Shown: positions 1,020 through 32,000, counted from the first letter of the stretch. The stretch is DNA of 32,000 nt from Bellilinea caldifistulae (GCF_001306055.1 NZ_LGHJ01000007.1:30001-62000); one strand, 5' to 3'. Program-made: numbers and translations. Notes: generated from the sequence alone by a model not told the origin.

Positions 1020-1832
1020 TTAATCTTCAAAAAAGGTTGACCATTCGGTATTCTGAAACTTGATTTTCAAGTCTTCGTAGTTTTGGATAATTTCCGAAAG
1101 AGGTTTTTGGATTTGTTTAAAGGTTTGGGCTTGAACTGGATATTCTGGGAGACCTAAAAACTGTTGGATTTTCTGAATTTGTCCAGTGGTATTTTCAGAA
1201 AGGTCTTCATAAATGACTTCAATCATTGGATGGTCTTTAAAAAACGAGTCGGCTTCCTGTTCCCATTGGCGTGTTTGAATAAAATCCTTCAAAAGAGCAT
1301 CGTAATCGAGTTGGTAGGATTGAAGATGAGTTTCTTTACCGTTAGTATTGACCCACTGGCCAGTTTTTACCGCATTCTCACGGGAAAGATGGGTTCTGAG
1401 AATGTTTCTTCTTTTGATATGAATGATGCGAATATCTTTTTGATTATTGATAGTATGCCAGATTTGGGCAAAGGGATTTTCTCTTGCATGGTAATAAAAT
1501 AACTTAAAGCCCAATGCTTGATATTTGGCTGGTATTTTACGAAAGACAATTTCCTCAAGAAATTTTTGAGGATCGTTTTGATAAACTTTGACAATTCTTG
1601 TAGTGGTTGGGAATTCCGGGTGGTCAAAATCAATTGCATCCTGGTTGCGAAATATTTCCCCTAAAACCAAAGCGGCAGGATGAGAATTGAGCAGACTTCG
1701 TAGAAAGTTACTTCCAGTGCGGGAGCGTCCCAAAATAATGAATTTTGTATAGGTGCGGGTTGTGGGGAAAAAACCAAATTCCCATGCAATTTCTTTTATT
1801 TTCATTCGTTGTTTATGGAAAAATTGTCTCAT
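1020..1832 (-). CDS. PAPS-dependent sulfotransferase (NodH/Stf0-like P-loop type)
   Basis: 270 aa. 5'-phosphosulfate-binding loop ILGRSRTGSNFLRSLL. 3'-phosphate-binding motif IKRRNILRTHLS. VIYEDL motif shared with the paralog at 18129..18860. ATG start confirmed at 1832. Confidence 0.8.
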   Translation of the reverse strand: MRQFFHKQRMKIKEIAWEFGFFPTTRTYTKFIILGRSRTGSNFLRSLLNSHPAALVLGEIFRNQDAIDFDHPEFPTTTRIVKVYQNDPQKFLEEIVFRKIPAKYQALGFKLFYYHARENPFAQIWHTINNQKDIRIIHIKRRNILRTHLSRENAVKTGQWVNTNGKETHLQSYQLDYDALLKDFIQTRQWEQEADSFFKDHPMIEVIYEDLSENTTGQIQKIQQFLGLPEYPVQAQTFKQIQKPLSEIIQNYEDLKIKFQNTEWSTFFED

Positions 1833-1865: not shown

Positions 1866-2783
1866 TTAATCCAGAATTTTGATTTTTCTTCTAGCCCCGA
1901 AGTGATTAGAGTAAAAATCAATCATGCCCTGTAACAAAGCATTTCGGTGAGGTTTTTTATTTTTCCAACGAGGTAGAAAACTCCATGCTAACAAAGTTCG
2001 AAATAATGCGATGTTGACGCCAACTCGATCTGAAAAAGAGGCACGGTGTTTGGAGAGCGTCAACAAGCGATTGCGAGTGGCGTAGTAGGTAACATTTGGG
2101 GAGGGTTGATAGTTTCTCTGCACGCCTTTGTGCCAGATTTTTGCTTGAGGAACCATCCACACCTGCCATCCGGCAGAACGAGCACGAATACACCATTCGG
2201 TTTCTTCCCAATAATAAAAATATCTTTCATCAATTCCACCGACCTGCTCAATCACTTCTCTTCTAATCAATATGGCACATCCTGAAATCCAATCCACTTG
2301 GATTGGCTGGATAAATTGCCCCTGATCCTGTTCATTTTGACCAATATGGATTGCCTGCCAACTTTTGGTAATTTTTCCTCCGGCGCTTTGAATTATTTCA
2401 GGTTCATCAAAATGGTAAACCAGAGGCCCTAAAATCCCAGCTTGCTGGTTAGAAATACCAAATTGGATTAAGTGCGAAATTGAAAGAGGATCAAGGATGG
2501 TATCTTCATTCAGGACGAAAACCCAATCAGCGCCAGCCTGTAAGGCGGCGTGGATTCCTGCATTGTTGTTGCCAGCATACCCTTTGTTTTCGGTTAGTCG
2601 AATAATTCTGGTTTGAGGGTATTGATCACAAATTGCTTCAACCGAACCGTCAGAAGAAGAATTGTCCAGTACCCAGGTTACAAGATTCGGATAGCGGCAA
2701 TTTTGTAGAGAAGATAAACAGGCTAGGGTATCGTCTTTTCGATTGGTGTTGAGAATAATAATGCCAATAAGAGGATCACTCAT
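1866..2783 (-). CDS. GT2-family glycosyltransferase (rhamnosyltransferase-like subgroup)
   Basis: 305 aa. IGIIILNTNRKDDTLACLSSL...VLDNSSSDGS and VLNEDT (DxD-type) motifs. The stop of the upstream gene lies 1 nt before its ATG. Confidence 0.85.
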   Translation of the reverse strand: MSDPLIGIIILNTNRKDDTLACLSSLQNCRYPNLVTWVLDNSSSDGSVEAICDQYPQTRIIRLTENKGYAGNNNAGIHAALQAGADWVFVLNEDTILDPLSISHLIQFGISNQQAGILGPLVYHFDEPEIIQSAGGKITKSWQAIHIGQNEQDQGQFIQPIQVDWISGCAILIRREVIEQVGGIDERYFYYWEETEWCIRARSAGWQVWMVPQAKIWHKGVQRNYQPSPNVTYYATRNRLLTLSKHRASFSDRVGVNIALFRTLLAWSFLPRWKNKKPHRNALLQGMIDFYSNHFGARRKIKILD

Positions 2784-2784
2784 T

Positions 2785-3780
2785 TTACTCTAGCCAGACG
2801 GCGGGTAAATTTTTACGGATTTCAATGTGCTTGAATTTTTGGGACTGGCGAGAGCCAAATTGCTTGACCCACGCAGCCATTGCATTTAATCCGTCTTCCA
2901 GTGAGGTGACAGGACGCTTACCAAAAACTCTTTGAATTTTTTCATGAGACGAATAGGCATCTTTGACTTCGTTACGGGGTGGCAGATGAAGGATTTGAGG
3001 TGACACGCCCATCGCTTTGGCTACGGACAATGCCAGCTCATTAACCGAGTAAGGCTGATCAGCGCCGATGTTAAACACCTGGTTATAGGCATCAGGAATT
3101 TGAACGGACTCCGCGATAAGCGGGGCAACATCTTTTATGTAACTGAATGCCCGGGTTTGAGTACCGTCCCCAAATATGGTCATCGGCTTGTCTTGTAAGA
3201 TCTGGTTCATAAAGATGCCAACAACATTTCTATAACGGTCACCAATATTTTGTTTTTCCCCATACACATTATGAGGGCGGAAAATGATGTAATTCAAACC
3301 AAACATGTCATGGCTGACGCGTAACTCCTGCTCGACCGCCAATTTAGATATTCCGTAAGGGTCTTCTGGATGAGGGGTATCCTCTTCGCTCATCGGCAAT
3401 TTGGGACTTGCTCCATAAACAGCAATGGAGGAGGTAAATACAAAACACTTAACTTCGTGATTGATGGAAGCATTAATCAAATTAATACTTCCGAGCAGGT
3501 TATTCGTGTAGTTGAAGTGTTTGATAAAGTGGCTCAACCCTTCGGCTGCATAAGCAGCCAGGTGAAAAACATAATCAAATTTTTCTTCTTGAAAGATATG
3601 ATGGATGAGTTGTTGATCTGTAATGCTTCCGTGAATAAAGCCAGCTCCTTTGACGATATTATCTTCAAAACCACCTGAAAGGTCATCCAAAACAATCACA
3701 TCGTATCCACGGGCAATCAATTCCTCGCTGACATGCGAACCAATGAATCCCGCACCGCCGGTAACTAAAACTTTTGTCAT
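2785..3780 (-). CDS. NAD-dependent nucleotide-sugar epimerase/dehydratase (extended SDR)
   Basis: 331 aa. Rossmann motif VLVTGGAGFIGSH. Catalytic YGISK (YxxxK). Length is typical of UDP-sugar 4-epimerase-like SDRs. The exact substrate cannot be called. Confidence 0.9.
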   Translation of the reverse strand: MTKVLVTGGAGFIGSHVSEELIARGYDVIVLDDLSGGFEDNIVKGAGFIHGSITDQQLIHHIFQEEKFDYVFHLAAYAAEGLSHFIKHFNYTNNLLGSINLINASINHEVKCFVFTSSIAVYGASPKLPMSEEDTPHPEDPYGISKLAVEQELRVSHDMFGLNYIIFRPHNVYGEKQNIGDRYRNVVGIFMNQILQDKPMTIFGDGTQTRAFSYIKDVAPLIAESVQIPDAYNQVFNIGADQPYSVNELALSVAKAMGVSPQILHLPPRNEVKDAYSSHEKIQRVFGKRPVTSLEDGLNAMAAWVKQFGSRQSQKFKHIEIRKNLPAVWLE

Positions 3781-3792
3781 TTATACCCTCAT

Positions 3793-4899
3793 TTATCCAA
3801 AAAGATATGTGTAGATTGGTTTCAGGAAAGAATTAATGGTCATTTTCATCAAAACCAATGGAATTGATAATCCAACAACGACTAAAATCAGGAAGAAAAG
3901 GAGGGGAAGCCCCAATAATTGTGGAAAAAAGTGATAAATTCCCCGCGCAGCGATTATCAAGAAAAGAGAATGAGCAAGAAAAACCCCAAAAGATTTCGGT
4001 CCTAATTCTTCGATCTTTTTACTGAAAGGGAAGCGAATGTTGAAGAAACCAATAAAAGCCGATAAAATTGCTGCGGAATACAGGTTGTCTATGAGCGTCT
4101 CATGGGGGCCGATCCATGTTTGACCCGATTGGATTAACAGCCACTCCCATTCGAAAATACCCGCGATGAAGAAAACAACAGAGATGATCAATAAAAGCCA
4201 GCGTATTTTGTGAAAATTTTCCTTGATCTCAATTTGACGAAAGCCAATGATCATTCCGAATGAAAACCAAAATATATGACCAATGAAAAACCACCCCGAG
4301 TTAATGAAGGAAAAGAAGGGGGTAAGGGGCAGGTTCATACCAATAATCACGGGATAATCCGCCAGCTTTGTAAGTGCTTGTAGCAGGGCAGTGGATGCTA
4401 GAAGGATTTTCCAGTTCCAGTTGACCAGTCGGATCAACACAGGGGACAAAAGATAAAGAGAAATGAGTAACGGAACAAAATAATAGGCTTCGGCAGCCTG
4501 ACCGGTAAGGTACATGCGCAATAATTGGATTAGAGTATAACGGGTATTTTGGAGTGCATTGAAAATGATCATCAGGGTTGACCATAACAAGTATGGTATT
4601 GCCAGATACTTGACACGGCTGACAACAAAATTCCAATCTAAGGCTCTCTTTTTGCCGGCGCTAAATGCTGCAAAAAAACCCGAAACCATCAAGAAGGCCG
4701 GAATACTCGGAATTATCCATTGTTCCAGCGTTCTAAGAAGAAAGTAAGTAGATGAGTATAGTTGAGAGAAGTCCGGTGAACTAAGGGCGGTATACCGATG
4801 AACCCACCAAAACATAGCAACATACGTCCACCCAATCGAGTGATTGATGACCACATTAATAATCGCTATACCATTCAGTAATAAAAACCGTTTTGACAT
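3793..4899 (-). CDS. Membrane acyltransferase, AT3 family (Acyl_transf_3), paralog 1
   Basis: 368 aa and polytopic. N-terminal LLLNGIAIINVVINHS with the family His. YYFVPLLISLYLLSP motif. C-terminus KPIYTYLFG shared with the paralogs. No fused SGNH domain. Confidence 0.85.
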   Translation of the reverse strand: MSKRFLLLNGIAIINVVINHSIGWTYVAMFWWVHRYTALSSPDFSQLYSSTYFLLRTLEQWIIPSIPAFLMVSGFFAAFSAGKKRALDWNFVVSRVKYLAIPYLLWSTLMIIFNALQNTRYTLIQLLRMYLTGQAAEAYYFVPLLISLYLLSPVLIRLVNWNWKILLASTALLQALTKLADYPVIIGMNLPLTPFFSFINSGWFFIGHIFWFSFGMIIGFRQIEIKENFHKIRWLLLIISVVFFIAGIFEWEWLLIQSGQTWIGPHETLIDNLYSAAILSAFIGFFNIRFPFSKKIEELGPKSFGVFLAHSLFLIIAARGIYHFFPQLLGLPLLFFLILVVVGLSIPLVLMKMTINSFLKPIYTYLFG

Positions 4900-4909
4900 A
4901 AAGGATCAT

Positions 4910-5956
4910 TCACCCAAACAAGTAACCATAAATTGGTCGCAATTTTGTAGAAAAAATAATTTGCATTCCCAACAAGGGTATTCCAAGACCGGCAATAAAA
5001 ATCAAGGCAAAAAAGAGTAGATGATTGGGTAAAATCCAGGGGGTAAATAAATAGATCCCTCTTGCAAAAATTTCCATGACCGGAACGTGAGCCAGATAAA
5101 TTCCAAAAGATTTTGCACTGAGAAAATTAAAGGTCTTATTGAAAGGTAATTTGATCTGATCGCCGAGAGATAAAAAGAAAAGCAAAATAGCAATCTGATA
5201 AAACCCATCAATGATTGTTTCCCGGCTCTGGAGTGGACCCTTAAAAACCTCCCACTCGATGAAGCCTGCTATCAAAAAGAAGATGGAAGCCAGACCAAAA
5301 ACCGTATTCATTCTTTGAAGCGATGGTTTGAATTTTGATAAATGCAATCCCGCCACTATTCCTGCTGAAAACCAGAATACTCTTGTGATAAATATCCATT
5401 TGGGAATTTGAGGTAATGATTGGATCAATTCCCCCTGAAATCCCCAAAGTGATAATGTGACCGGTAAATGAATAAAAACTTGAATCAGACCGGTGACAAT
5501 CAGTAGAACTTTCCAGTTTTTCCTGGCTGCGAAGATAAGCAATGGGGCAATCAAGTACAGTTGAATAATGAGTGGTACATAATAATAGGCAGGAGTTGTT
5601 GAACCAATTAATAAATTGGTCAAAATTCGTCCGGGGCTAAAACTTTTTCCCTCCACCAAACCCAGACCAAGAAAAAAGATTGACCAAATCAGATATGGAA
5701 TCAGCAGTCCTCTAATTCGTGTAAAGGTTTGTTTAAAATTGAATTTGGAGGTATGCCGTCCTGCCAAAAAAGCAGCGAAATACCCGGAAACAAATATAAA
5801 GGCCGGGATACTGAAAACAACCACTTGTTCAACCGCCCGTAGAAAATAAAAAGATGGACTCGAGGCGAGGGCTTCGATAGGGATGCTGATTGGGTAACGA
5901 TTACTCCAGGAAAACATGGAGGTCATTACCCAACCGGCACTATGAAACAGGATCAC
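4910..5956 (-). CDS. Membrane acyltransferase, AT3 family, paralog 2 (true start probably upstream, possibly CTG at 6001)
   Basis: 348 aa from the GTG at 5956. The conserved family N-terminus (LSKNLLYLNGIAAFCV-ILFHS) continues upstream in frame to the TAA at 6014..6016. YYYVPLIIQLYLIAP motif. C-terminus RPIYGYLFG. Confidence 0.8.
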   Translation of the reverse strand: MILFHSAGWVMTSMFSWSNRYPISIPIEALASSPSFYFLRAVEQVVVFSIPAFIFVSGYFAAFLAGRHTSKFNFKQTFTRIRGLLIPYLIWSIFFLGLGLVEGKSFSPGRILTNLLIGSTTPAYYYVPLIIQLYLIAPLLIFAARKNWKVLLIVTGLIQVFIHLPVTLSLWGFQGELIQSLPQIPKWIFITRVFWFSAGIVAGLHLSKFKPSLQRMNTVFGLASIFFLIAGFIEWEVFKGPLQSRETIIDGFYQIAILLFFLSLGDQIKLPFNKTFNFLSAKSFGIYLAHVPVMEIFARGIYLFTPWILPNHLLFFALIFIAGLGIPLLGMQIIFSTKLRPIYGYLFG

Positions 5957-6013
5957 GCAAAATGCGGCGATACCATTGAGGTAAAGAAGGTTTTTGCTCA
6001 GAGGAGATCCTTT

Positions 6014-7315
6014 TTAATCCTGAGATAGTTGAGTAAATTCCGGTAAATCATCAATCGGAATACTGGTCAATTTTGACCGGAGAAGGTGATTCTCGGTTTT
6101 CTCGACGGTTTCAATATACTGCCTCATGGCGGCCAGAACGGGAACTTCCTTACGGTCGTAGACCTCTCCTTGAAGGAGACGAAGGACTTCTAGTCGGTAC
6201 TTTTTGGATTGAATAAAGTGGGTGAAAAGGGGCAGCAATTTGTAATAAAGTCGTATGAATTCATACCAGACACTTACTCCTGCTCTCATTTTTACTTCGT
6301 AAGGTTTGAAAGCAGCTTCGCTGAAATCGCCGGTTTCGAATGCTTGCTGGATGAATTGGGAACCGTATTTTGCCGAATACAAGGCGATACTGACGCCAGA
6401 GGAAAAAATGGGGTCAACAAAGCGTGCAGCATCCCCAACCAGAATGAAGCCATTCCCTACAAATTTTTCCATCGAATATGAATAGTCGCCTTCTTGTTTA
6501 AATTCGTTGATTCTTCGAGCTTCAGAAAGAGCGTATTTCAACCCCTCATTTGAATTTGCGTATTTGTTGAAATAACCCTCTACATCTCCTTTGGATTCCA
6601 TAAATACTTCCTTCTCGGCGACAACACCCATTGAGGTGATTTTATCGGTGATCGGGATTTGCCATGCCCATCCTCTTTCCACCGGAAGGAAGTAAATATG
6701 GATAAAGTCTGCTGTTTCCGGTTCACCGCGATTTACATTCTCAAACCAGGCATGAACTGCGTATTGATTGAAAATTGGATCCTTTTTCTTTATTCCCAAC
6801 TGTCTACCCAGAAGCGTGTTTCTTCCGCTTGCATCAACAATCATTTTAGCGGCCAAGTCAACTTCCTGGTCGGCAATTTTCACGCGCACGCCAGCAGCGT
6901 ACCCTTTTTCATCAAACAACACCTGTTTAACTGTAATTCCCTGATAAACTTCGCTTCCAAGTTTTTCGGCGTGTTTGAGTAAAAGTAAATCCAGTTTTCC
7001 GCGATCAACATGGTATGTGTAGGGTTGATTGATACCCTCTTGGGGAAATTCATCAAACCAAATATGAGAAGCGCCTCTGCCTTTAATATCATGCCATGAT
7101 GCACCATACTTGTGCGGAAAACCTTCTTTTTCCAGGATGGGAAGAAAGCCGATTTCCTTGTACACCCGCGTGGAGGACGTAACCATTGACTCGCCCACAT
7201 GAGGACGCGGATGGATTGCAGACTCGAGAATTATGTTCTTGATGCCGGCCATGGAAAGATAACTTCCCATGACCGAGCCAGCAGGACCACCACCGATAAT
7301 TATTACCTGATTCAT
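6014..7315 (-). CDS. FAD-dependent halogenase-like flavoprotein (PltA/CndH/CmlS-type fold)
   Basis: 433 aa. Dinucleotide motif IIIGGGPAGS. Exact WxWxIP motif (GWAWQIPI). HPRPHVGES segment. GDAARFVDPIFSSGV motif typical of flavin halogenases rather than geranylgeranyl reductases. GGAGG lies 6 nt upstream of the ATG. Confidence 0.75.
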   Translation of the reverse strand: MNQVIIIGGGPAGSVMGSYLSMAGIKNIILESAIHPRPHVGESMVTSSTRVYKEIGFLPILEKEGFPHKYGASWHDIKGRGASHIWFDEFPQEGINQPYTYHVDRGKLDLLLLKHAEKLGSEVYQGITVKQVLFDEKGYAAGVRVKIADQEVDLAAKMIVDASGRNTLLGRQLGIKKKDPIFNQYAVHAWFENVNRGEPETADFIHIYFLPVERGWAWQIPITDKITSMGVVAEKEVFMESKGDVEGYFNKYANSNEGLKYALSEARRINEFKQEGDYSYSMEKFVGNGFILVGDAARFVDPIFSSGVSIALYSAKYGSQFIQQAFETGDFSEAAFKPYEVKMRAGVSVWYEFIRLYYKLLPLFTHFIQSKKYRLEVLRLLQGEVYDRKEVPVLAAMRQYIETVEKTENHLLRSKLTSIPIDDLPEFTQLSQD

Positions 7316-7321
7316 TTTATG

Positions 7322-7326
7322 CCTCC
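7322..7326 (-). promoter_or_regulatory. Shine-Dalgarno (GGAGG) for the halogenase-like gene
   Basis: The plus strand reads cctcc at 7322..7326, which is GGAGG on the coding strand, with a 6-nt spacer to the ATG at 7315. Confidence 0.55.
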
Positions 7327-7371
7327 GCTTAGAGTGTTGAATAGAGTTATTTCAATTCGACAGGGCGAAAA

Positions 7372-8493
7372 TTAACCCCATAAATAAGAATAGATGGGCT
7401 TGATCGGAAATTTTCTCGAGAGGTGCATCATCAGTAATGGGATAGTGATACCCATGAAAACTAAAATTCCGAGCAAGATCACGGTTTGACCCAAAAGAAA
7501 GGGCAAAACATGGTAAATCAATCTGGCGCAGATTTCAATCACAATGACATGGCTCAGATAAATTCCATACGAATTGGCTCCTAAAACTTCAATATTGGAG
7601 GAAAGAAAAATATTCTTCCCCATAATGACATAAGCTAGAAGAAGCAGCGAATACAACCATTTGGTTATGAGGGATGACTGGGAATTAATCCAATCGTTCC
7701 CACTTGCATTAATCAATAACTGGAATTCGATCTGTCCAAAAATCACGAAAAATGCAATAAGAAAAAGAATCCACCAGCGATGATTTTTTAAAAATGATGT
7801 AATTTTTTCACGATAAATGAACAGTGATAACCCGGCTATAAACCACAATAAATGGGAAAGAAGGTAACCGCCTTTGAATAAGTTTAAAAAGTTCAATGAT
7901 TGCGGCAAGCTAACATTCAGAATCTTGAAGTACCAGGTAATACCGGATAGAAATTGGAGTAAAAACCCGATTCCGACGGCAACAAGAGGAAATTCCTTGA
8001 CGGCACGAAACAGGAATGGAGATAATAGAATCAATTGGATAATTAGTGGAACGTAATAAAAAGGACCATCCGCCTCGCCGAGAAGAAATACCCTGGCCAA
8101 TTTTGTGAGGGAATAACTATCGCCTTCCATTAGCCTGAATACAACTGTAATTGATGACCAAATGATATAAGGAATCAACAGATAAATTATTCGTTTTTGG
8201 AGAAACCGGTAACTCTGGCGGATTGATTGATGATTGAGGGAAAATCCATATAGAAAACCGGACACAAACAAAAAAGCGGGTACAGCAACACCGGCAATCT
8301 GATCGGTTATCCTGAGAAAAATTGAAAAAAGATTGGGAGAGAATAGGGATTGGGGGGTGGCATTGCTCACAAAGCGGTGTCCCCAGAAATTGATGGCTGT
8401 TATTGCCCAATAAATAGAATGATGATATACAGCAAAAAGGATGGCAATTCCATTGAGCAAAAGCAGTTTTCTTATCATTAGAAAATTATCCAC
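7372..8493 (-). CDS. Membrane acyltransferase, AT3 family, paralog 3
   Basis: 373 aa from GTG 8493; an alternative ATG at 8478 gives MIRKLLLLNGIA. LLLNGIAILFAVYHHS, FYYVPLIIQLILLSP, C-terminus KPIYSYLWG. Confidence 0.85.
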   Translation of the reverse strand: MDNFLMIRKLLLLNGIAILFAVYHHSIYWAITAINFWGHRFVSNATPQSLFSPNLFSIFLRITDQIAGVAVPAFLFVSGFLYGFSLNHQSIRQSYRFLQKRIIYLLIPYIIWSSITVVFRLMEGDSYSLTKLARVFLLGEADGPFYYVPLIIQLILLSPFLFRAVKEFPLVAVGIGFLLQFLSGITWYFKILNVSLPQSLNFLNLFKGGYLLSHLLWFIAGLSLFIYREKITSFLKNHRWWILFLIAFFVIFGQIEFQLLINASGNDWINSQSSLITKWLYSLLLLAYVIMGKNIFLSSNIEVLGANSYGIYLSHVIVIEICARLIYHVLPFLLGQTVILLGILVFMGITIPLLMMHLSRKFPIKPIYSYLWG

Positions 8494-8544
8494 CAGCAGC
8501 AGAAAATGAGCTCCACCCTGCTTTTCTGCCAGCCAGAAAGGTTA

Positions 8545-8796
8545 TTAGTGCTTTGCTGCCAGTTTTTGATCAAGATAGCTGCTCAGCGCATTCACGCTCA
8601 TAAAGTTTTCTATTACCACGTCTTCATCTGGGACGGTGAAGTTAAATTTTTCTTCGATGAACGCTACCAATTGAAGAATTCCGAGAGAATCGATTATACC
8701 CTCGGCAAGCAGGTCTTCATCGTTGTTAATCGTCTTTTTCCGGCCTTTGGCAAGTTCGTTAAGAATAAAATTGTTTATGATCATTTGTGTTTCCAT
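8545..8796 (-). CDS. Phosphopantetheine-binding carrier protein (PCP/DltC-like), 83 aa
   Basis: METQMIINNFILNELAKG...LLAEGIIDSLGILQLVAFIEEKF carries the DSL serine attachment motif. I place the start at ATG 8796, which has GGAGG 7 nt upstream. The longer track ORF (to 8895) would overlap the end of the adenylation gene. Confidence 0.8.
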   Translation of the reverse strand: METQMIINNFILNELAKGRKKTINNDEDLLAEGIIDSLGILQLVAFIEEKFNFTVPDEDVVIENFMSVNALSSYLDQKLAAKH

Positions 8797-8803
8797 TTCC
8801 AGT

Positions 8804-8808
8804 CCTCC
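8804..8808 (-). promoter_or_regulatory. Shine-Dalgarno (GGAGG) for the carrier protein
   Basis: The plus strand reads cctcc at 8804..8808, which is GGAGG on the coding strand, with a 7-nt spacer to the ATG at 8796. Confidence 0.55.
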
Positions 8809-8821
8809 GTTTGGTTTAAAA

Positions 8822-10399
8822 TTAAAAATTTTTAATCGCTCTTTCTTGCAATTCCCGCCTGTTGATTTTACCGGTTGATGTTCTCGGAAAATCATCGGAT
8901 ATAACGATTTTGGCTGGAATTGCGTAGTTTGGCAATCGCCCGGAAAGGTGTTTAACTAAGTCATCCTCACTCAATTTCTCTCCTTGAACCAAAATGATGG
9001 CAGCTTCAATTAAATTGCTGCCTTCAACATCAGGGACGGGATAGGCCGCGGCTTCATGTACGGCGGGATGGGACAACAATGCTGCTTCAACCTCATCCAG
9101 TTCAACCCGATAACCCCTGGTTTTGATCTGCCGATCCTTTCTTCCCAAAAATTTGTAATTTCCGTCAGGCATTTTTTGAACCAGATCGCCCGTTCGATAA
9201 AAAATATCTTCACAATAACCAAACATCGAGCGCCGGAAAAATCCTTTTTCGGTCAGATCCGGTCTTCCCCAGTAGCCTTTCATGACCGTCCCGCCCCTGA
9301 TCAATAATTCACCGATTTGGCCGTCAGGTAAAGGTTTCCCTTCAGTGTCAATGACCAGGTCCTCTGTGTTTTCACAAACAATGCCAATCGGGATTGGCTC
9401 ATCGGAGTCTTCCGATAAAGGAGCGACATGGTAGTAGGTACAAACATTGGTTTCGGTAGGACCGTAAAGATTTGAAAAGCGCGCCCATGGGAGTGTCTTC
9501 ATAAGATTTCTTAGATGCTTGGTTGGGAAAGGCTCGCCAGCAAATAAAACCCATCGTAAAGACGAAAGGTTCTTTGAATCAAGCCCGCCCCTTTCAAGCA
9601 TTTGAATCAACGCAAAAGGTACGGAATACCAAATTGTGATTTTTTCATCTTGAATCCACCTGGCCATGCTGGCAGGTAATTTGGTTATTCCTTCTGGAAT
9701 AATGACGGTGGTGGCGCCGGCGATTGCGGCAGCAAAGAAATCGAAAGTGGAAAGATCGAAATGGAGTGGGGCGTGATTACTGATGTGATCAGAGGATGAG
9801 ATTTGATAAGTTTGCACCGCCCATTCTGCAAAAGAAAGTCCACTCCGGTGAGTGTGCATGATTCCTTTGGGGGTGCCCGTTGAACCGGAGGTATAAAGGA
9901 TATAGGCCAGATCCTGTTCAACCAGATTTATCGAGGGTTGTGAGGATGGATGACGGAAAATTTGATTCCAGGAATATGAAGGAACATTAATTTCTACGTC
10001 ATTTTGAATTCCAATGATTCCCTCGAGAGTTGTCTTTTCGATGATTTCCTTGAGGTTGTCTTTTCTGGATTCGTTCGTAATTAGGAAGCGAATTTGACAG
10101 TCATTTATAACAAAGATGAGGCGATCAATGGGTGCGAATGGATCTAAAGGCACATAGGCGGCACCTGCCGACAAAATGCCATAAATGGCTACGGCAGAGT
10201 TGATATTTTTATTCATATAAATTCCCACGCGGTCACCCCGTTTTACGCCCAGATCAACTAAGAAGTTTCCTAATTGGGCTGAATTTTTAGCTAATTGATC
10301 ATAAGTTAATTCTTCCTTCTGAAAACGGACTGCTGGATGTCTTGGGCGTAATAGAGCATTTTCATAAATTGCAGAATGCAAGAGGTAGCGGTAGCTCAT
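8822..10399 (-). CDS. Stand-alone amino-acid adenylation enzyme (ANL superfamily, NRPS A-domain/DltA-like)
   Basis: 525 aa with a full set of A-domain core motifs: LAYILYTSGSTGTPKG (A3), HFDLSTFDFF (A4, with the Asp that pairs with an alpha-amino group), NLYGPTETNV (A5), GELLIRGGTVMKGYW (A6), YRTGDLV (A7), GRKDRQIKTRGYRVELDEVE (A8), LPNYAIP (A9), PRTSTGKINR (A10). No C, T or TE domain is fused. Confidence 0.9.
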   Translation of the reverse strand: MSYRYLLHSAIYENALLRPRHPAVRFQKEELTYDQLAKNSAQLGNFLVDLGVKRGDRVGIYMNKNINSAVAIYGILSAGAAYVPLDPFAPIDRLIFVINDCQIRFLITNESRKDNLKEIIEKTTLEGIIGIQNDVEINVPSYSWNQIFRHPSSQPSINLVEQDLAYILYTSGSTGTPKGIMHTHRSGLSFAEWAVQTYQISSSDHISNHAPLHFDLSTFDFFAAAIAGATTVIIPEGITKLPASMARWIQDEKITIWYSVPFALIQMLERGGLDSKNLSSLRWVLFAGEPFPTKHLRNLMKTLPWARFSNLYGPTETNVCTYYHVAPLSEDSDEPIPIGIVCENTEDLVIDTEGKPLPDGQIGELLIRGGTVMKGYWGRPDLTEKGFFRRSMFGYCEDIFYRTGDLVQKMPDGNYKFLGRKDRQIKTRGYRVELDEVEAALLSHPAVHEAAAYPVPDVEGSNLIEAAIILVQGEKLSEDDLVKHLSGRLPNYAIPAKIVISDDFPRTSTGKINRRELQERAIKNF

Positions 10400-10442
10400 T
10401 TTTTCCTCGCGTATTCGTAAGTTAAACTACAAATCTACTGAT

Positions 10443-11732
10443 CTACTGAATTGTGGAAATCGAAGGATCATTTTCTGTGAGCGATATTGATTTTTTTTCA
10501 CCCAGGAAATAGGTCATTAATGGGCCGGCGGCCACTGAAGTGATAATGGCGGTGATAAATAAAGAAACAAAAATTCGTTCATCAATTAATCCATTGGAAA
10601 GACCGATCCCTGCAAGAATAATTCCAGTAGCACCGCGCGCATTTAATCCACTGGCTATTGCAAATACGCGGCGATTGATTTTCATACCGGCTATTTTTGC
10701 GCCTAAGAGGACGGAGAGAAATTTTGAAACAATAGCGCTAAGTAGAATAACTGTGAGCAGGGTAAAGTCAAAATTAATAATAAAATTAGCTTTCATACCA
10801 ATTGAAACAAAATAGATTGGTGCGAAAAATGCCATGACAAATTGAGAGATGACGGTATGGGCTTGTTCTGCTTCGGGATGTTTCCCCGCAACTACCGCCC
10901 CGAGTAAAAATGCCCCTAAAAAGGCGTGTATTCCTAAAAATTCTGCTACGGATGCGACTAATAAAATGGCTAAAGTAGTAAATGCTATAAAACCACTTGG
11001 CCACGAGACGGATTTTCTAATGAATCTCAGAGCTTGCGGCGCAAACCTTCTACCGAAAGTCAGCATTAGAATAAAAAATGAAAGGATTAAGAAAATAGTT
11101 TGATCAGCGCCGAGAGAAATTTCCCCAGCCTGGGGGCGATGAGTAAAACTCAACATGATTGCAAATAAAGTCCATGTGATTGAATCGTCAATCACCGTGG
11201 CATTGAGGGTGATTAACCCAATTTCTTTTTTTAGAAGACCCAGATCCTGAAGAATTCGTATAATAACAGGATTGGCGGTGTTCGCCAGGTTAATTCCAAT
11301 GAACAATCCAAAAATAATCAAGTTTTTCTGTGCAATCGGTCCCCAAAGGGCTGAGGGAAGCAGATACACCAGTCCAACTCCAAACGCAATGGGAAGTATT
11401 GTGCCAAACAAACCAATAAAAAATGCGTATCGGCCAACATGATTTGTGTTTGAAAAATTAATCTCGAGGCCAGCAATGAACAAGAAAAATAGCATTCCCA
11501 TTTTGATGGACGCATCACGTAAAATACCAACTTCCAAAGAAGATTGGAAAAGCCACTCAAAGAAATCGGGAAATAGCCAACCGAGGATAGTTGGACCAAG
11601 TAGGATGCCGCCAATCAATTCACCTAACACAGAAGGTTGTCGAAAGCGCCGCATGGTTTGTCCCATGACTAATGCGCAACCCAACATGAGAGCAATTTGA
11701 AGAAAGAACTTAATCAAATCTTGATTACTCAT
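10443..11732 (-). CDS. Cation:proton antiporter, CPA2 family (membrane domain only, no RCK/KTN domain)
   Basis: 429 aa and polytopic. N-terminal FFLQIALMLGCALVMGQTMRRFRQPSVLGELIGGILLGPTILG is the classic Kef/NapA-type opening. Its ATG overlaps the upstream stop (TAATG at 11730..11734). Confidence 0.85.
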   Translation of the reverse strand: MSNQDLIKFFLQIALMLGCALVMGQTMRRFRQPSVLGELIGGILLGPTILGWLFPDFFEWLFQSSLEVGILRDASIKMGMLFFLFIAGLEINFSNTNHVGRYAFFIGLFGTILPIAFGVGLVYLLPSALWGPIAQKNLIIFGLFIGINLANTANPVIIRILQDLGLLKKEIGLITLNATVIDDSITWTLFAIMLSFTHRPQAGEISLGADQTIFLILSFFILMLTFGRRFAPQALRFIRKSVSWPSGFIAFTTLAILLVASVAEFLGIHAFLGAFLLGAVVAGKHPEAEQAHTVISQFVMAFFAPIYFVSIGMKANFIINFDFTLLTVILLSAIVSKFLSVLLGAKIAGMKINRRVFAIASGLNARGATGIILAGIGLSNGLIDERIFVSLFITAIITSVAAGPLMTYFLGEKKSISLTENDPSISTIQ

Positions 11733-18128: not shown

Positions 18129-18860
18129 TCAAACTAAAACTTCATCAAACATTGATTCGAATGGCGTACCCAAATACTTTGAGCGGATCTGCTCAAAATT
18201 TAAAACCACTTCTCTTAGGTCGTCGCTGGTATTTTTTAAGGTCTTCCCTTCAACGGGAAATGGATCTACACCTAAAAAGTCAAAAACCTTTGAAAGAACT
18301 TGATCCCGGTTGATTAGCAAATCCTCGTACACCATTTTTAAGGTGGGCAAATTGAGCTTTTTTGTGAAATTAGTTAATTCTTCATCTGCCTGAATTCTTT
18401 CCAATAAGTATTGGTGAAAGACTTGCGGGTCTATTTCAAAAGCAGGCAAGCGTTCTTTTTCATTGTATAAATTCCAATTACCGGTAACATCATGCAAGCG
18501 CCTGGCATTGATTCTGGAAACTACGGCTTTGACTTGATTTCTTCGTTGCATTTGGATAATACGGACTTTTTTTTCAATCAACAATTGCATAAAGGAGCTT
18601 TTATCCAAAATATCCACTAGCTTGGTCTTAAAACCTACAGCACCATATTTCGTGACCAACGGCGGACTAAAAAATCTTCTTGCCCATTCAATCTGATCTT
18701 CTCCGCTTGCCCCTTTTTGCTTCATCACAGCAAAACGTTCATAAACAGATTGAATTTGAGGATGGGATGTCAAAAGGCTAATCATGTAGGTGCTGCCATC
18801 CCGTTCTATGAATAATATTACGTATGGGGTGACTTGCGAACGTAAGAAAAATTTACGCAT
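18129..18860 (-). CDS. PAPS-dependent sulfotransferase (NodH/Stf0-like), paralog of 1020..1832
   Basis: LFIERDGSTYMISLL (P-loop), QMQRRNQVKAVVS (3'-phosphate-binding motif), MVYEDL. I prefer ATG 18860 (MRKFF...), 1 nt after the upstream TAA, over the TTG at 18875 used in the track. Confidence 0.75.
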   Translation of the reverse strand: MRKFFLRSQVTPYVILFIERDGSTYMISLLTSHPQIQSVYERFAVMKQKGASGEDQIEWARRFFSPPLVTKYGAVGFKTKLVDILDKSSFMQLLIEKKVRIIQMQRRNQVKAVVSRINARRLHDVTGNWNLYNEKERLPAFEIDPQVFHQYLLERIQADEELTNFTKKLNLPTLKMVYEDLLINRDQVLSKVFDFLGVDPFPVEGKTLKNTSDDLREVVLNFEQIRSKYLGTPFESMFDEVLV

Positions 18861-18861
18861 G

Positions 18862-22876: not shown

Positions 22877-24085
22877 CTAATTAATCTTCCAGGAATGATC
22901 CAGATAAGCTATTCCATTTATTTCATTCCCGCCCCTTACAACAAGGTGATTAGCATTGTTCTTTCTATCGTAGAATGTATACCCGTCAGAATGAAAAATG
23001 ACAGCATCAAAAGTATAGGCGTTCGGAAGTAAGTTAAATTTTTGAAATTCAATATCAACATAACCATCCCCCTCAAAATCTCCAGTGGGAATACCGTCCA
23101 CATCCGTCCGAATTCCAGTAACCTGATGACTATTCAAAATGTGTATTACGACATTGAATACTGGATTTTTTACCAAGGTGTTTGTGTGATAGTAGAGACG
23201 AATTTTTACCTTATCCCCAACATCAAAGATTGTTTGTTTCTCTTCATTTTCATTCAAAATTTCTAATTCTTGGATTGTTATTTCCCCAGTCCCCCCCCGT
23301 ATAAAGTCATTATATTGTTCATAGGTCTTGAGTAAGGATAAACGATAAATATCAATTGCTGATTCTGTATCACCATCATAAATCACCTTTCCTTTCTCAA
23401 GAGCGATTGAGCGAGGACAGAGATGACTGATCGTGTGTAAGTTATGAGAAACAATAATAATGGATACTCCCTTGTTTTTTAATTCTTGAATTCTCACCTG
23501 ACACTTTGTTCTAAAAGCCAGATCGCCAACGGATAATACCTCATCTATAAGCAAAACATCAGGTTCTAAAAATGCTGCTACAGAAAACCCTAAGCGCACC
23601 ACCATACCAGAACTGTAACTTTGTACAGGCATATCTAAGAACTCTGATAAACCGGAAAAGGAAACAATTTCATCAAAACGCTTATTGATTTCCTTCTTTG
23701 AAAATCCCATCAAAGATGCATTGATATATATATTTTCACGGCCTGTCAACACTGGGTTAAAGCCGGCTCCCAGTGCAATCAGAGCCTGCACTCTCCCGTT
23801 AATATTTATTTTTCCTGTGTCAGGTAAAATCAATCCACCTAGCATTCGAAGAAGTGAAGTTTTGCCCGCACCATTGTGACCAATTAATCCGACTGTTTCG
23901 CCAGGTTGCACCTCAAAAGAAATATCCTTTACTGCCCAGAACTCATCTTTACGCAAGTTCAGATAGTTTCTTTCCCTCCCAATCAATTCACTTCCCATAT
24001 CAAGAAGGCCATAATACAATGACCTCCGCATGCTTCTACAAAATTTTTTACTTACTTTATCAATGCGGATAATTGGTTTTGTCAT
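22877..24085 (-). CDS. wzt: ABC transporter ATP-binding protein for glycan export (Wzt/TagH type) with an extra C-terminal domain
   Basis: 402 aa. Walker A GHNGAGKTS, signature YSSGMVVRL, Walker B LLIDEVLSVGD, H-loop IVSHN. Residues ~265-402 form an additional domain beginning GTGEITIQELEILNE, as in the Wzt carbohydrate-binding extensions. Confidence 0.9.
   Translation of the reverse strand: MTKPIIRIDKVSKKFCRSMRRSLYYGLLDMGSELIGRERNYLNLRKDEFWAVKDISFEVQPGETVGLIGHNGAGKTSLLRMLGGLILPDTGKININGRVQALIALGAGFNPVLTGRENIYINASLMGFSKKEINKRFDEIVSFSGLSEFLDMPVQSYSSGMVVRLGFSVAAFLEPDVLLIDEVLSVGDLAFRTKCQVRIQELKNKGVSIIIVSHNLHTISHLCPRSIALEKGKVIYDGDTESAIDIYRLSLLKTYEQYNDFIRGGTGEITIQELEILNENEEKQTIFDVGDKVKIRLYYHTNTLVKNPVFNVVIHILNSHQVTGIRTDVDGIPTGDFEGDGYVDIEFQKFNLLPNAYTFDAVIFHSDGYTFYDRKNNANHLVVRGGNEINGIAYLDHSWKIN
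23291..23298 (-). repeat. G8 homopolymer on the coding strand inside wzt (codons R263-G264-G265)
   Basis: The plus strand reads cccccccc at 23291..23298. The coding strand reads ATA CGG GGG GGG ACT GGG. It is in frame as sequenced. Confidence 0.9.
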
Positions 24086-24963
24086 TATGTCCCCAATTTT
24101 TCAATGAGTATTGGTAGTGATATACGATAAAGTAATAATGAAAAAAAGAAAACAACAATTGTAAGTATTAAAACGATTGTGACATGAAGAAGATTATCTA
24201 TATAACCCACAGTTATTAAGTTTCTTGTGGCAATCAGGATTGGGCTGACAGGATTGATGATACTTATCAACGAAAAAGGGAACTTTTCAGGTAAGGTGTA
24301 AACTACGGGTGTTGCAAAAAATAACAATTGCAATACGATTGGAAGAGATGTCGAAACATCTGAATATAACATACCAATCGGGGTAATCAATATTCCAATT
24401 ACTATTCCAAGAAGAACAAGAACAAAAATCCCAAAAGGCGCTAAAAGAATCCCCCACTGAATTTGAATTTTATAAAAGATCAAAACACCTATGATAATGA
24501 TCATCCTGATGACCACATTGAACATGACACTTAAAAAAGCCGAAAAAATCAAAGCTTCTCGCGGGAAAAAAATTTTTACAATATAAGGCTTTGCGTTTAT
24601 GGTGGCCTTCAATGGTGCATTTACACTGTCCGCAAAAATTTGCCATAATGTTGTTCCAATCAGGACATATGCTGGATAAGGCAAATTGATCGTACTCGTT
24701 GAAATTATGTTCCTGGACTGAAGTAAGATAAAGATTACAGAAGTGATTATGGGAGGAAAAAAAGCCCAAAAAACTCCCAAAAGGCTTTGTCTATATTGTG
24801 CGGAAATATCTCTAATAAATAGCCTCCAAGCCAATTCACGAGATAAGAATAAATCGCGGAGAATAGAACTTAAGAGCTTAAAGAGTTTTGGTGTTGATTT
24901 CTCCGAACCAGAAATGATGGTGTATTCCATCGCTTGTTTCTTCACAACTCTTACCTTTCTCAT
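24085..24963 (-). CDS. wzm: ABC-2 type glycan export permease (Wzm/TagG type)
   Basis: 292 aa. LAWRLFIRDISAQYRQSLLGVFWAFFPP is the ABC-2 N-terminal signature, followed by six hydrophobic segments. Its stop overlaps the wzt start (TAATG), and its start overlaps the upstream stop (ATGA). Confidence 0.85.
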   Translation of the reverse strand: MRKVRVVKKQAMEYTIISGSEKSTPKLFKLLSSILRDLFLSRELAWRLFIRDISAQYRQSLLGVFWAFFPPIITSVIFILLQSRNIISTSTINLPYPAYVLIGTTLWQIFADSVNAPLKATINAKPYIVKIFFPREALIFSAFLSVMFNVVIRMIIIIGVLIFYKIQIQWGILLAPFGIFVLVLLGIVIGILITPIGMLYSDVSTSLPIVLQLLFFATPVVYTLPEKFPFSLISIINPVSPILIATRNLITVGYIDNLLHVTIVLILTIVVFFFSLLLYRISLPILIEKLGT

Positions 24964-29207: not shown

Positions 29208-30260
29208 CTATCCGAACACCAACCGATACATCGTTCTTCCTCTATTCTTTTCAACCCATTCCATGAACAAAAGCGGAAGGAAGATAGTAATTGCCGCAAT
29301 CACCATAACCAGCAAGGGCTGAATAGCCAATAATTGTTTTGTGCCAATTTGGATAACTGTAAAAAAGATTAGATTGATGATGATGAGATTAGTAAGATAA
29401 ATACCGTAAGACCTTTTCCCTAACCTCTCAAAAAAACGCACAAATGGCATTTGTTCCCTTTTTACAGTGGTCAACCAGATGAGTCCGAATAAGGGCACAA
29501 TAATTTCAATTAGCGGGAGGGATGTAATGCTCAACTGGGTTGACACTGCAAGTGAAAATAAAACAAGCGTTATGACAATCAAAATAAATACATTCGTTTT
29601 ATTACTCAAAGTTTGTTTGAACCATTCATACCGAAGACCAAATATTACGCCCATTGGATAGAACACACCCCACAGAGCAAGCGGGAGGCGAATTATCGGT
29701 GGAGCGAAAAATCTCGCCCATTCGGGCAGGATGCTCCCAAATATGTCCGGCCGAAGCAAGATAACTAAAAATGCCTGATATGTAAAAAAAGTCAGAAAAA
29801 TCAACAAGGGGGATTTCTTTGTCAAAGTGATCAGGAAGGGTGCAAAAAAAGTAAAAAAGAAAAGCAACGGAACAAAATTATTGGGGTAGCCAACGATCAA
29901 GGATTTTACATATCCAATTAACGAATCCTGCTCACCAAATAAAAAATATACAACTACATAAAATACCAAAGACCAGATGAGATAAGGCAAAGCAATATGG
30001 AGTAAGTTGTTTGGGATCAGGCGATACATGGCTTTCAAGCCTTTTCCCTGCGCTGCGTAAGCAAAGTAACTGCCGGCGAGAAATAGAAACAATGGCACAG
30101 CAAAAATCCCTAATTCTTTTATCGGAATCAACAGAGATTTTTGCCATTGAGGAATGCCCACCCCTTGATTTCTGGCAAACTGAAACCCAAGGGTGATGGA
30201 ATGGTTAATGACCACAAGCAGTATTGCAATGCCACGCAGAGCAGGGAAATTTCTATTCAC
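29208..30260 (-). CDS. Membrane acyltransferase, AT3 family, paralog 4 (most divergent)
   Basis: 350 aa with a GTG start. FPALRGIAILLVVINHS N-terminal motif, polytopic, C-terminus MYRLVFG. Confidence 0.8.
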   Translation of the reverse strand: MNRNFPALRGIAILLVVINHSITLGFQFARNQGVGIPQWQKSLLIPIKELGIFAVPLFLFLAGSYFAYAAQGKGLKAMYRLIPNNLLHIALPYLIWSLVFYVVVYFLFGEQDSLIGYVKSLIVGYPNNFVPLLFFFTFFAPFLITLTKKSPLLIFLTFFTYQAFLVILLRPDIFGSILPEWARFFAPPIIRLPLALWGVFYPMGVIFGLRYEWFKQTLSNKTNVFILIVITLVLFSLAVSTQLSITSLPLIEIIVPLFGLIWLTTVKREQMPFVRFFERLGKRSYGIYLTNLIIINLIFFTVIQIGTKQLLAIQPLLVMVIAAITIFLPLLFMEWVEKNRGRTMYRLVFG

Positions 30261-30272
30261 AAATGCGCACCT

Positions 30273-32000
<1,728 letters not shown>

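Follow-up and report, generated by a model that had tools for sequence, protein, structure and literature searches.

The window analysed here, a stretch of 32,000 nucleotides from Bellilinea caldifistulae (Anaerolineae, Chloroflexota; GCF_001306055.1 NZ_LGHJ01000007.1:30001-62000), carries at positions 6014-10399 genes for a stand-alone adenylation enzyme (ligase), a small carrier protein, an AT3 membrane acyltransferase and a halogenase-like flavoprotein, followed by two further AT3 genes, all of them in a glycan operon. These genes may represent an undescribed pathway of Chloroflexota and some Acidobacteriota, present in at least 27 species-level genomes, in which a dedicated AT3 subfamily takes a proline-derived pyrrole-2-carboxyl group straight off a phosphopantetheinyl carrier protein and moves it through the membrane onto a sulfated surface glycan, the group being halogenated where a PltA-type gene is present; for this proposal as a whole the chances are judged to be evenly balanced. 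That the AT3s esterify the glycan with an acyl group drawn from a halopyrrole-2-carboxyl-S-carrier is modestly favoured, and the region 1866-11732 is, on a similarly slight balance of probability, a glycan-decoration module that borrows the enzymology of natural products. Pyrrole cassette and special AT3 subfamily form a new combination, which is widespread in Chloroflexota and was not found described in the literature searched. The genes of this region are the following (open reading frame, ORF; amino acids, aa):

8822..10399, minus strand: predicted stand-alone L-proline adenylation enzyme of the PltF/RedM/CloN4/AnaC type, 525 aa (AMP-binding, TIGR01733, PltF match, Pro code)
8545..8796, minus strand: type II peptidyl carrier protein, 83 aa, phosphopantetheine site Ser37 in IIDSLGIL (PP-binding)
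7372..8493, minus strand, probable start ATG 8478: AT3 'a', N-X10-H subfamily (Acyl_transf_3 E 1.8e-28)
6014..7315, minus strand: predicted PltA-type FADH2-dependent halogenase, 433 aa (Trp_halogenase and FAD_binding_3; Mpy16/ChlB4/PltA matches)
4910..6001, minus strand, canonical-start ORF 4910-5956: AT3 'b', N-X10-H subfamily (Acyl_transf_3 E 1.8e-22)
3793..4899, minus strand: AT3 'c', N-X10-H subfamily, motif NGIAIINVVINH (Acyl_transf_3 E 2.1e-21)
10443..11732, minus strand: CPA2-family (Na_H_Exchanger) membrane protein at the head of the cassette (Pfam E 3.6e-44)
2785..3780, minus strand: GalE-like NAD-dependent sugar epimerase (TIGR01179 182.9 bits, under its 262.3 cutoff)
1866..2783, minus strand: family-2 glycosyltransferase (GT2) of the rhamnosyltransferase type, co-conserved with the cassette

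The four genes of 6014-10399 are real, co-directional and tightly spaced, as the original prediction had stated: they occupy the minus strand at the coordinates listed, with intergenic gaps of 10-57 nt, and were compared with the public gene calls of the assembly GCA_001050215.2 (scaffold DF967971.1, ~2.11 Mb). The translation of the ligase has readable core motifs A1-A10, HFDLS among them, matches Pfam AMP-binding (E 5.6e-89) plus AMP-binding_C, and passes the NCBIfam model of amino-acid adenylation domains, TIGR01733 (385.6 bits, cutoff 317.4), in agreement with the amino-acid-adenylating activity first proposed for it. Its best stand-alone PDB match is PltF, the L-proline--carrier-protein ligase 6o6e (E 6.6e-102), and its ten-residue specificity code, read by alignment, is DLFYLALVCK. 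The sequence L(L/F)YLALVC has been described as the code of stand-alone L-Pro adenylation enzymes, with proline kinetics cited for CloN4, CouN4, RedM, PltF, AnaC and Leu5 (PMC3874040). Because of this match, L-proline is well supported as the predicted substrate of the window ligase, and a fatty-acyl or aryl(-CoA) ligase, considered as an alternative, was ruled out, since the amino-acid adenylation model is passed and the Pro code is exact. The identical code occurs in 55/74 adenylation domains adjoining the dehydrogenase described below, and DLLYLALVCK in 7 more; a literature search for the specificity code as an exact string gave no match. The carrier protein, of the same length in the public gene call, matches PP-binding with 30.1 bits (cutoff 20.8), contains the expected DSL serine (Ser37), and its PDB matches include PltL (9e-5) and PigG.

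Membership in the Dlt family was rejected, the models for DltA (TIGR01734, 278.6 bits against a cutoff of 559.85) and DltC (TIGR01688, 22.4 against 52.35) being far under their cutoffs. Neither DltB (MBOAT) nor DltD was recorded among the genes of a 43-kb region of the Bellilinea genome or found in the scanned ORFs of the window, as had been expected. Given the Pro code, the PltA-clade halogenase and these low scores, the system resembles a PltF/PltL/PltE/PltA cassette and not a relative of Dlt, so that the window cassette is, to judge from its proteins, of the pyoluteorin/prodigiosin/clorobiocin type (proline-to-halopyrrole). The original prediction of a Dlt-like aminoacyl branch was thus right in architecture and wrong in chemistry: the Pro code and the dehydrogenase of related loci point to a (halo)pyrrole acyl group, and the system would work like Dlt without being a member of that family.

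The flavoprotein, 433 residues long, can be aligned from residue 4 to residue 419 (4-419) with Mpy16 (5buk), ChlB4 (7fco) and PltA (5dbj), with E ~1e-124. It contains the motifs GGGPAG at residue 8, Lys69 in FPHKYGASW (aligned with the Lys of FPKKFGAAW in PltA), WAWQIP at 216 and FVDPIFSSG at 299, and these, including the catalytic Lys, are kept in 29 orthologs. The full-length alignment and the complete set of motifs support its assignment to the carrier-protein-dependent PltA clade, in line with the halogenase-like character first attributed to it. Mpy16, ChlB4 and PltA all act on carrier-tethered acyl groups, PltA and Mpy16 on a pyrrolyl-S-carrier, and the known halogenases of the PltA clade act on electron-rich aromatic acyl-carriers. 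The halogenase also has the lowest non-synonymous divergence of the genes of the locus (pN 0.032-0.038 against the related loci L003 and L006). In the same comparisons the window locus shows saturated synonymous sites (pS 0.70-0.85) while pN stays between 0.03 and 0.23, and for this reason the Bellilinea cassette is under purifying selection and its genes are in use. These loci belong to the Bellilinea clade (the window, L003-L006, L092, L093 and L116), within which the carrier protein is 86-88% identical among relatives.

Related loci were collected in a dehydrogenase-anchored scan with one genome per species, which gave 270 loci, of which the best 80 were mapped. These 80 come mostly from Anaerolineae, Ardenticatenaceae, Caldilineaceae and Promineifilaceae (Chloroflexota), with some from Acidobacteriota, Proteobacteria, Actinomycetota and Desulfonema magnum. 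In the locus map, made by tblastn, class I loci have a ligase at least 55% identical to that of the window and class II loci one 40-46% identical with the same Pro code. Co-occurrence of the genes in other genomes had been named beforehand as a refutation test, and an AT3 gene was found within 6 kb after the ligase in 27/28 class I loci with at least 3 kb of flank, the lone exception being incomplete. The order in these 27 is dehydrogenase, ligase, carrier and then 1-3 AT3 genes, with the halogenase optional. AT3-anchored look-ups gave the same picture, since 4/4 distant relatives (30-35% identity), one of them from a metagenome-assembled genome (MAG) of Acidobacteriota, lie directly after dehydrogenase-ligase-carrier, with or without halogenase. 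The module as such is broader, and the halogenase is an accessory that it can do without.

In 17 complete class I loci only the dehydrogenase (the anchor of the scan), the ligase, the carrier and AT3 (37 AT3 ORFs) are universal. The next commonest genes are GT2 (14), a family-4 glycosyltransferase (GT4; 14), the epimerase (12), another GT4 (10), the halogenase (8), a flavin monooxygenase (FMO)-like protein (6) and Wzy_C (5), and none of the condensation, ketosynthase, thioesterase or hydrolase families is conserved in these loci. AT3 being the only conserved gene able to take the acyl group off the carrier, the simplest reading is that it would act in the role of DltB, as the original prediction had proposed. 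The other conserved neighbours are glycosyltransferases, the epimerase, Wzy and a sulfotransferase: the epimerase (67-75% identity) comes after the AT3 genes in 12/17 of the complete loci, the GT2 (53-60% identity) is present in 14/17, and sulfotransferase relatives (43-48% identity) flank the cassette in many loci. The FMO-like flavoprotein is of the Pyr_redox_3 type and stands upstream of the cassette in the six loci that have it (L011:5992-7554; L090:866-2398).

AT3 is present in five class II loci and absent from 12. Three of those without it, Desulfonema magnum (L078:10001-21141, CP061800), L062 and L061, run into C-PCP-KS-AT or KS megasynthases, and L047 and L077 continue instead into large FG-GAP/Malectin repeat proteins. 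Because AT3-less loci with a distant ligase lead into megasynthases of the polyketide synthase (PKS) and nonribosomal peptide synthetase (NRPS) kind, AT3 seems to fill the position of the downstream acceptor. The loci of D. magnum, a sulfate reducer, and of L062 and L061 (MAGs of Acidimicrobiia and Chloroflexota) are in themselves pyrrole- or dehydroproline-primed PKS/NRPS clusters not characterised before. In another locus of the dehydrogenase-ligase-carrier-AT3 kind (L091:10262-15662), two Condensation-PP-binding-Thioesterase proteins come after the AT3 pair.

The dehydrogenase is best seen in L007, a locus whose AT3 is only 35% identical to that of the window and which runs ETF-beta, ETF-alpha (the subunits of an electron transfer flavoprotein, ETF), Fe-S oxidoreductase, acyl-CoA-dehydrogenase-family protein, CPA2, ligase, halogenase, carrier, three AT3 genes, epimerase, GT2 and sulfotransferase. 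Its dehydrogenase matches AnaB, a prolyl-acyl-carrier-protein (ACP) dehydrogenase, with E 5.6e-146 (489 bits) and PigA with 1.5e-105 (356 bits), its best NCBIfam models being PigA and RedW, and members of this family (~75% identity) accompany PltA-type halogenases in many loci. Since related loci combine a Pro-specific ligase with a prolyl-carrier dehydrogenase, the transferred group is most likely (halo)pyrrole-2-carboxyl, which is aromatic and has no free alpha-amino group. A homolog search returned at least 120 dehydrogenase clusters that are at least 76% identical, and the protein is 69-78% identical across Chloroflexota, Acidobacteriota, Proteobacteria, Actinomycetota and Desulfonema magnum (L008-L087, match at ~10001-11143 in most); this conservation, unusual for secondary metabolism, suggests strong constraint or frequent transfer. 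In L007, and in this one locus, the ETF-beta, ETF-alpha and Fe-S/CCG oxidoreductase genes (L007:1-3942) stand directly before the dehydrogenase, and the set could be an O2-independent electron outlet for the oxidation of proline.

All three cassette AT3s are members of Acyl_transf_3 (PF01757), with 100, 80 and 77 bits for 'a', 'b' and 'c' (cutoff 31). A crude hydropathy count gives 10, 9 and 7 membrane segments, respectively, and no SGNH partner domain is fused to any of them in the Pfam scan. The AT3 genes first predicted are therefore confirmed as such, and it is the starts of the first two that had to be moved. The start of 'a' is probably ATG 8478, because the public call has 368 aa. In 'b' the first canonical start codon comes only after the N-X10-H motif NGIAAFCVILFH; no ATG, GTG or TTG precedes the motif, and the frame runs on from the halogenase stop (6014-6016). 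The real start is probably CTG 6001, which would give MSKNLLYLNGIA..., as in its paralogs; the public call of 'b' (353 aa) begins inside the motif. An R-X10-H motif in the first transmembrane helix (TMH1) has been termed 'absolutely conserved' in AT3 proteins (PMC9833829). In OafB, where the two residues are Arg14 and His25, the Arg binds the 3'-phosphate of coenzyme A (CoA). The corresponding residues of AT3 'a' are Asn14 and His25, and in all three cassette AT3s the His is kept and the Arg is replaced by Asn. Among 88 cassette-linked AT3 ORFs the Arg position is occupied by Asn in 67, Ser in 8 and Met in 4, and the only Arg is that of the fourth AT3 of the window (29208-30260), which lies outside the cassette. 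Homologs of AT3 'a' have Asn in 112/120 and Arg in 0/120; in the aligned controls Arg is kept in Sf6 Oac, E. coli OpgC, WecH and the fourth AT3. A basic K-R, R-x-K or R-x-R is found at the place that roughly aligns with the RXXR-type motif before (I/L)PY of TMH3. Sequence comparison gave 987 phmmer matches in 1.84 billion representatives and no PDB match for the cassette AT3. These proteins are classed as a distinct subfamily, remote from mainstream AT3s and with Asn-for-Arg as its signature. As a carrier protein has no 3'-phospho-ADP, the loss of the CoA-binding Arg fits a carrier-bound donor, a point that is suggestive only.

The pathway would then consist of four steps. The stand-alone adenylation enzyme would activate L-proline and load it on Ser37 of the carrier, a step well supported by homology and by a code backed in the literature. 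A dehydrogenase of the AnaB/PigA/RedW type, deduced from the relatives and necessarily encoded outside the locus if it is to act in Bellilinea, would oxidise the tethered proline to pyrrole-2-carboxyl, and the PltA-type halogenase, with FADH2, O2 and halide, would by homology halogenate the tethered pyrrole. Finally, the synteny suggests that the three AT3s take over the acyl group from the phosphopantetheine arm, an arm that CoA has in the same chemical form, and carry this group through the membrane, so that hydroxyls of the exported sulfated glycan would become esterified, the target being probably the sugar provided by the GalE-like epimerase and the GT2.

Each half of this scheme has known counterparts. 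The pyoluteorin (PltF/PltL/PltE/PltA), RedM/O/W, PigI/G/A, Bmp and Mpy systems have in common with it a stand-alone Pro enzyme with the same code, a type II carrier and a PltA-clade halogenase, and their dehydrogenase is matched in the related loci and not in the Bellilinea locus. Those cassettes pass their product to a PKS or NRPS, whereas the window has membrane AT3s in a glycan operon instead. With Dlt (DltA/DltC/DltB/DltD), which D-alanylates teichoic acids, it shares the logic of an adenylation enzyme, a small carrier, a polytopic membrane acyltransferase and an ester on an envelope polymer; here, however, the acyltransferase is an AT3 and not an MBOAT protein, there is no DltD, and the predicted acyl group is aromatic and derived from proline instead of D-Ala. 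In clorobiocin and coumermycin biosynthesis (CloN1-N7), a carrier-bound, proline-derived pyrrole-2-carboxyl group ends as an ester on the 3-OH of noviose. That transfer is made by soluble transferases (CloN2, CloN7) with a second carrier onto a small aminocoumarin molecule, while here the candidates are membrane AT3s and the target a polymer. Vibrio cholerae AlmEFG carries out a carrier-dependent acylation of lipid A with glycine without DltB or DltD, although AlmG is a member of another acyltransferase superfamily than the AT3s of the window, works on the inner face and uses glycine. The AT3s OafA/OafB, Oac, OatA, ExoZ/ExoH, OpgC and WecH share the Pfam family, a comparable hydrophobic profile, the His of TMH1 and the context of glycan loci with the cassette AT3s, which differ from them in having Asn for Arg and in their proposed donor, an acyl-carrier protein and not acyl-CoA.

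Several points weigh against a carrier-bound pyrrolyl donor. All the AT3s tested in vitro use acyl-CoA, and a direct transfer from carrier to AT3 lacks precedent; the AT3 review of 2022 holds acyl-CoA rather than ACP to be the donor (PMC9558356), so that a carrier-dependent AT3 would indeed be new, as the original prediction had supposed. The literature on AT3 with carrier proteins, or on pyrrole or halogen esters of polysaccharides, Chloroflexi included, was searched and no such system was found. The 43-kb region of the Bellilinea genome contains no prolyl-carrier dehydrogenase: none is encoded in the window, in the ~5 kb past its low-coordinate end or in the ~17 kb past its high-coordinate end. 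Two homolog queries gave no Bellilinea dehydrogenase among the best 120 of more than 7900 relatives, a result that is uninformative at that depth. The order without dehydrogenase is found in relatives down to 56% AT3 identity as well, all the members of the Bellilinea clade having been seen without it; the cassette being constrained nonetheless, its dehydrogenase gene must lie in another part of the genome, unless the clade uses a different chemistry. Moreover, the dehydrogenase family is closest to AnaB, which reportedly stops at the pyrroline stage (pyrroline-5-carboxyl). B. caldifistulae is described as strictly anaerobic, while flavin halogenases need O2, an objection softened by the bd oxidases and respiration genes that Anaerolineae genomes commonly carry; the original prediction was silent on both the missing dehydrogenase and this need for O2. 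The window has no flavin reductase or phosphopantetheinyl transferase gene. As regards the AT3s, Arg is found in 10/139 more distant representatives, and two metagenome Arg-type AT3s and the fourth AT3 of the window lie near an AsnB-like amidotransferase, a ligase of the ligase_PEP_1 type and an ACP. Since Arg-type proteins thus occur among the distant representatives and beside another ligase-plus-ACP module, the Asn-for-Arg exchange, considered at one stage as direct evidence of a CoA-free donor, was downgraded to a subfamily signature; in the metagenome loci the Arg-type relatives are almost never near the Pro cassette.

The use of acyl-CoA by every AT3 tested would be explained if the two sets of genes had independent functions, the ligase, carrier and halogenase making a small halopyrrole metabolite or another product and the AT3s being ordinary acetyl- or acyl-CoA O-acyltransferases. 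Glycan loci often contain several AT3 O-acetyltransferases, and the window itself has a fourth, canonical one. Nevertheless, this explanation is unlikely, because the adjacency is kept in the 27/28 class I loci and the 4/4 look-ups, in two phyla, no enzyme for release or condensation is conserved in the loci, and the linked AT3s form a separate subfamily without the CoA-binding Arg. The absence of the dehydrogenase from the 43 kb and from all the Bellilinea-clade relatives seen bears on another possibility, that in this clade L-prolyl-S-carrier is the donor and the glycan is prolylated by Dlt-like chemistry, the halogenase acting otherwise. L037 (CPA2, dehydrogenase, ligase, carrier, halogenase) differs in its order from Bellilinea only by the dehydrogenase, so that removing this one gene gives the arrangement of the window. 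On the other hand, the halogenase is the most constrained gene and is 73% identical to that of L007, a locus with dehydrogenase; the known enzymes of its clade act on electron-rich aromatic acyl-carriers, and a dehydrogenase may be encoded elsewhere. Prolylation is accordingly rated as quite unlikely, and its variant in which N-halogenation followed by elimination substitutes for the dehydrogenase is very speculative.

The acceptor and the acyl group could differ from those proposed without changing the rest of the pathway. Small molecules, macrolide sugars and Nod factors among them, serve some AT3s as acceptors, and the cassette AT3s have no fused SGNH domain, which would suit an acceptor at the inner face (a lipid-linked or nucleotide sugar precursor) or one that is not a glycan, for example a lipid or a protein. 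The conserved neighbours, however, are all genes of glycan assembly and export, with the epimerase and the GT2 travelling with the cassette, and only a small probability is given to such acceptors. The higher score of the L007 dehydrogenase against AnaB than against PigA would agree with a two-electron oxidation only, giving a pyrroline-carboxyl (dehydroprolyl) group at least in loci without halogenase. The presence of the same dehydrogenase family with PltA-type halogenases in many loci argues against it, as does the fact that pyrrolyl-S-carrier protein is the substrate of PltA and Mpy16, which are among the three solved proteins nearest to the halogenase. This reading is rated as highly improbable, although the proximity to AnaB means that dehydroprolyl rather than pyrrolyl might be transferred in halogenase-free loci.

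The pyrrolyl-carrier cassette is set in a larger operon, given that all the long ORFs of the window are on the minus strand and constitute one long glycan operon. Its other main features are:

1020..1832, minus strand: sulfotransferase (Sulfotransfer_3 and Sulfotransfer_1)
22877..24085, minus strand: Wzt ABC-transporter ATPase (ABC_tran and Wzt_C)
24085..24963, minus strand: presumed Wzm permease, overlapping the start of wzt (at least 5 hydrophobic segments)
29208..30260, minus strand: fourth AT3, outside the cassette, R-X10-H motif RGIAILLVVINH (Acyl_transf_3 E 1e-24)
30273..31976, minus strand: bifunctional ATP-sulfurylase/APS kinase, for supply of 3'-phosphoadenosine 5'-phosphosulfate (PAPS) (PUA_2, ATP-sulfurylase and APS_kinase domains)

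The operon further encodes a PMT_2-type protein, several glycosyltransferases of families GT2 and GT4, an AsnB-like amidotransferase and two proteins with BNR repeats. The Wzm/Wzt locus seen earlier stands in its ATPase, identified by its two domains, and its permease is presumed only, as the hydrophobic protein encoded at 24085-24963 has no Pfam match at E <=0.01 and no match in the public gene table. Three sulfotransferases (1020-1832, 18129-18875 and 21669-22868) and the PAPS synthase are encoded in this one operon, and these, together with Wzt and the presumed permease, indicate that the glycan is probably sulfated and exported via an ABC transporter, the pair at 22877..24963 being the presumed export route. 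Promoter-like and terminator-like sites were not more frequent in the window scan than in shuffled sequence, and a phage tblastn search with the fourth AT3 gave no match.

Among related loci 15 kb or longer, CPA2, the gene heading the cassette, is confined to those with the halogenase (loci with/without halogenase: 8/0 with CPA2 versus 12/24 without it; Fisher p 7e-4), and several loci are ordered dehydrogenase-CPA2-halogenase; the protein could have a role in ion, halide or pH supply. Just beyond position 32000 of the window (L088:559-7039, DF967971.1), the same operon contains a second ligase-plus-carrier set, composed of an HpnJ-like radical SAM protein, an 86-aa ACP, a ligase_PEP_1-type AMP ligase (478 bits), an AsnB/eps_aminotran_1-like amidotransferase and an NAD synthase, after which come the PAPS synthase and then the Arg-type fourth AT3. 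In metagenome loci the AsnB-ligase-ACP trio directly adjoins Arg-type AT3s (L112:246-5290 and L101:8001-13064), and a ligase plus ACP beside an AT3 may be a more general theme. The XrtA/PEP-CTERM set of exopolysaccharide loci (TIGR03098 and TIGR03108; ligase, ACP and amidotransferase), a copy of which lies just upstream of the window, likewise places a ligase and an ACP in such loci; its ligase, unlike that of the cassette, is of a fatty-acyl-like family without Pro code, and it has no dehydrogenase or halogenase.

If the carrier-bound pyrrolyl donor is correct, the donors of AT3 enzymes would extend from acyl-CoA only to carrier-protein thioesters, with the first carrier-protein-dependent AT3, and a second, unrelated family of membrane enzymes would join the Dlt-type logic of envelope esterification. 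The model is directly testable, as B. caldifistulae GOMI-1 is in culture. It predicts a new glycan substituent, pyrrole-2-carboxyl and its halogenated forms, made by enzymes so far known only from antibiotic biosynthesis, and a halogenated aromatic ester would be a first for bacterial polysaccharides, made even by an organism whose description calls it strictly anaerobic. Digesters, activated sludge and sediments abound in Anaerolineae and their relatives. Organohalogens bound to polymers in such habitats would be a new natural organohalogen pool, and could affect the attack of phages and enzymes on filaments, the properties of flocs and, possibly, organohalide respiration.

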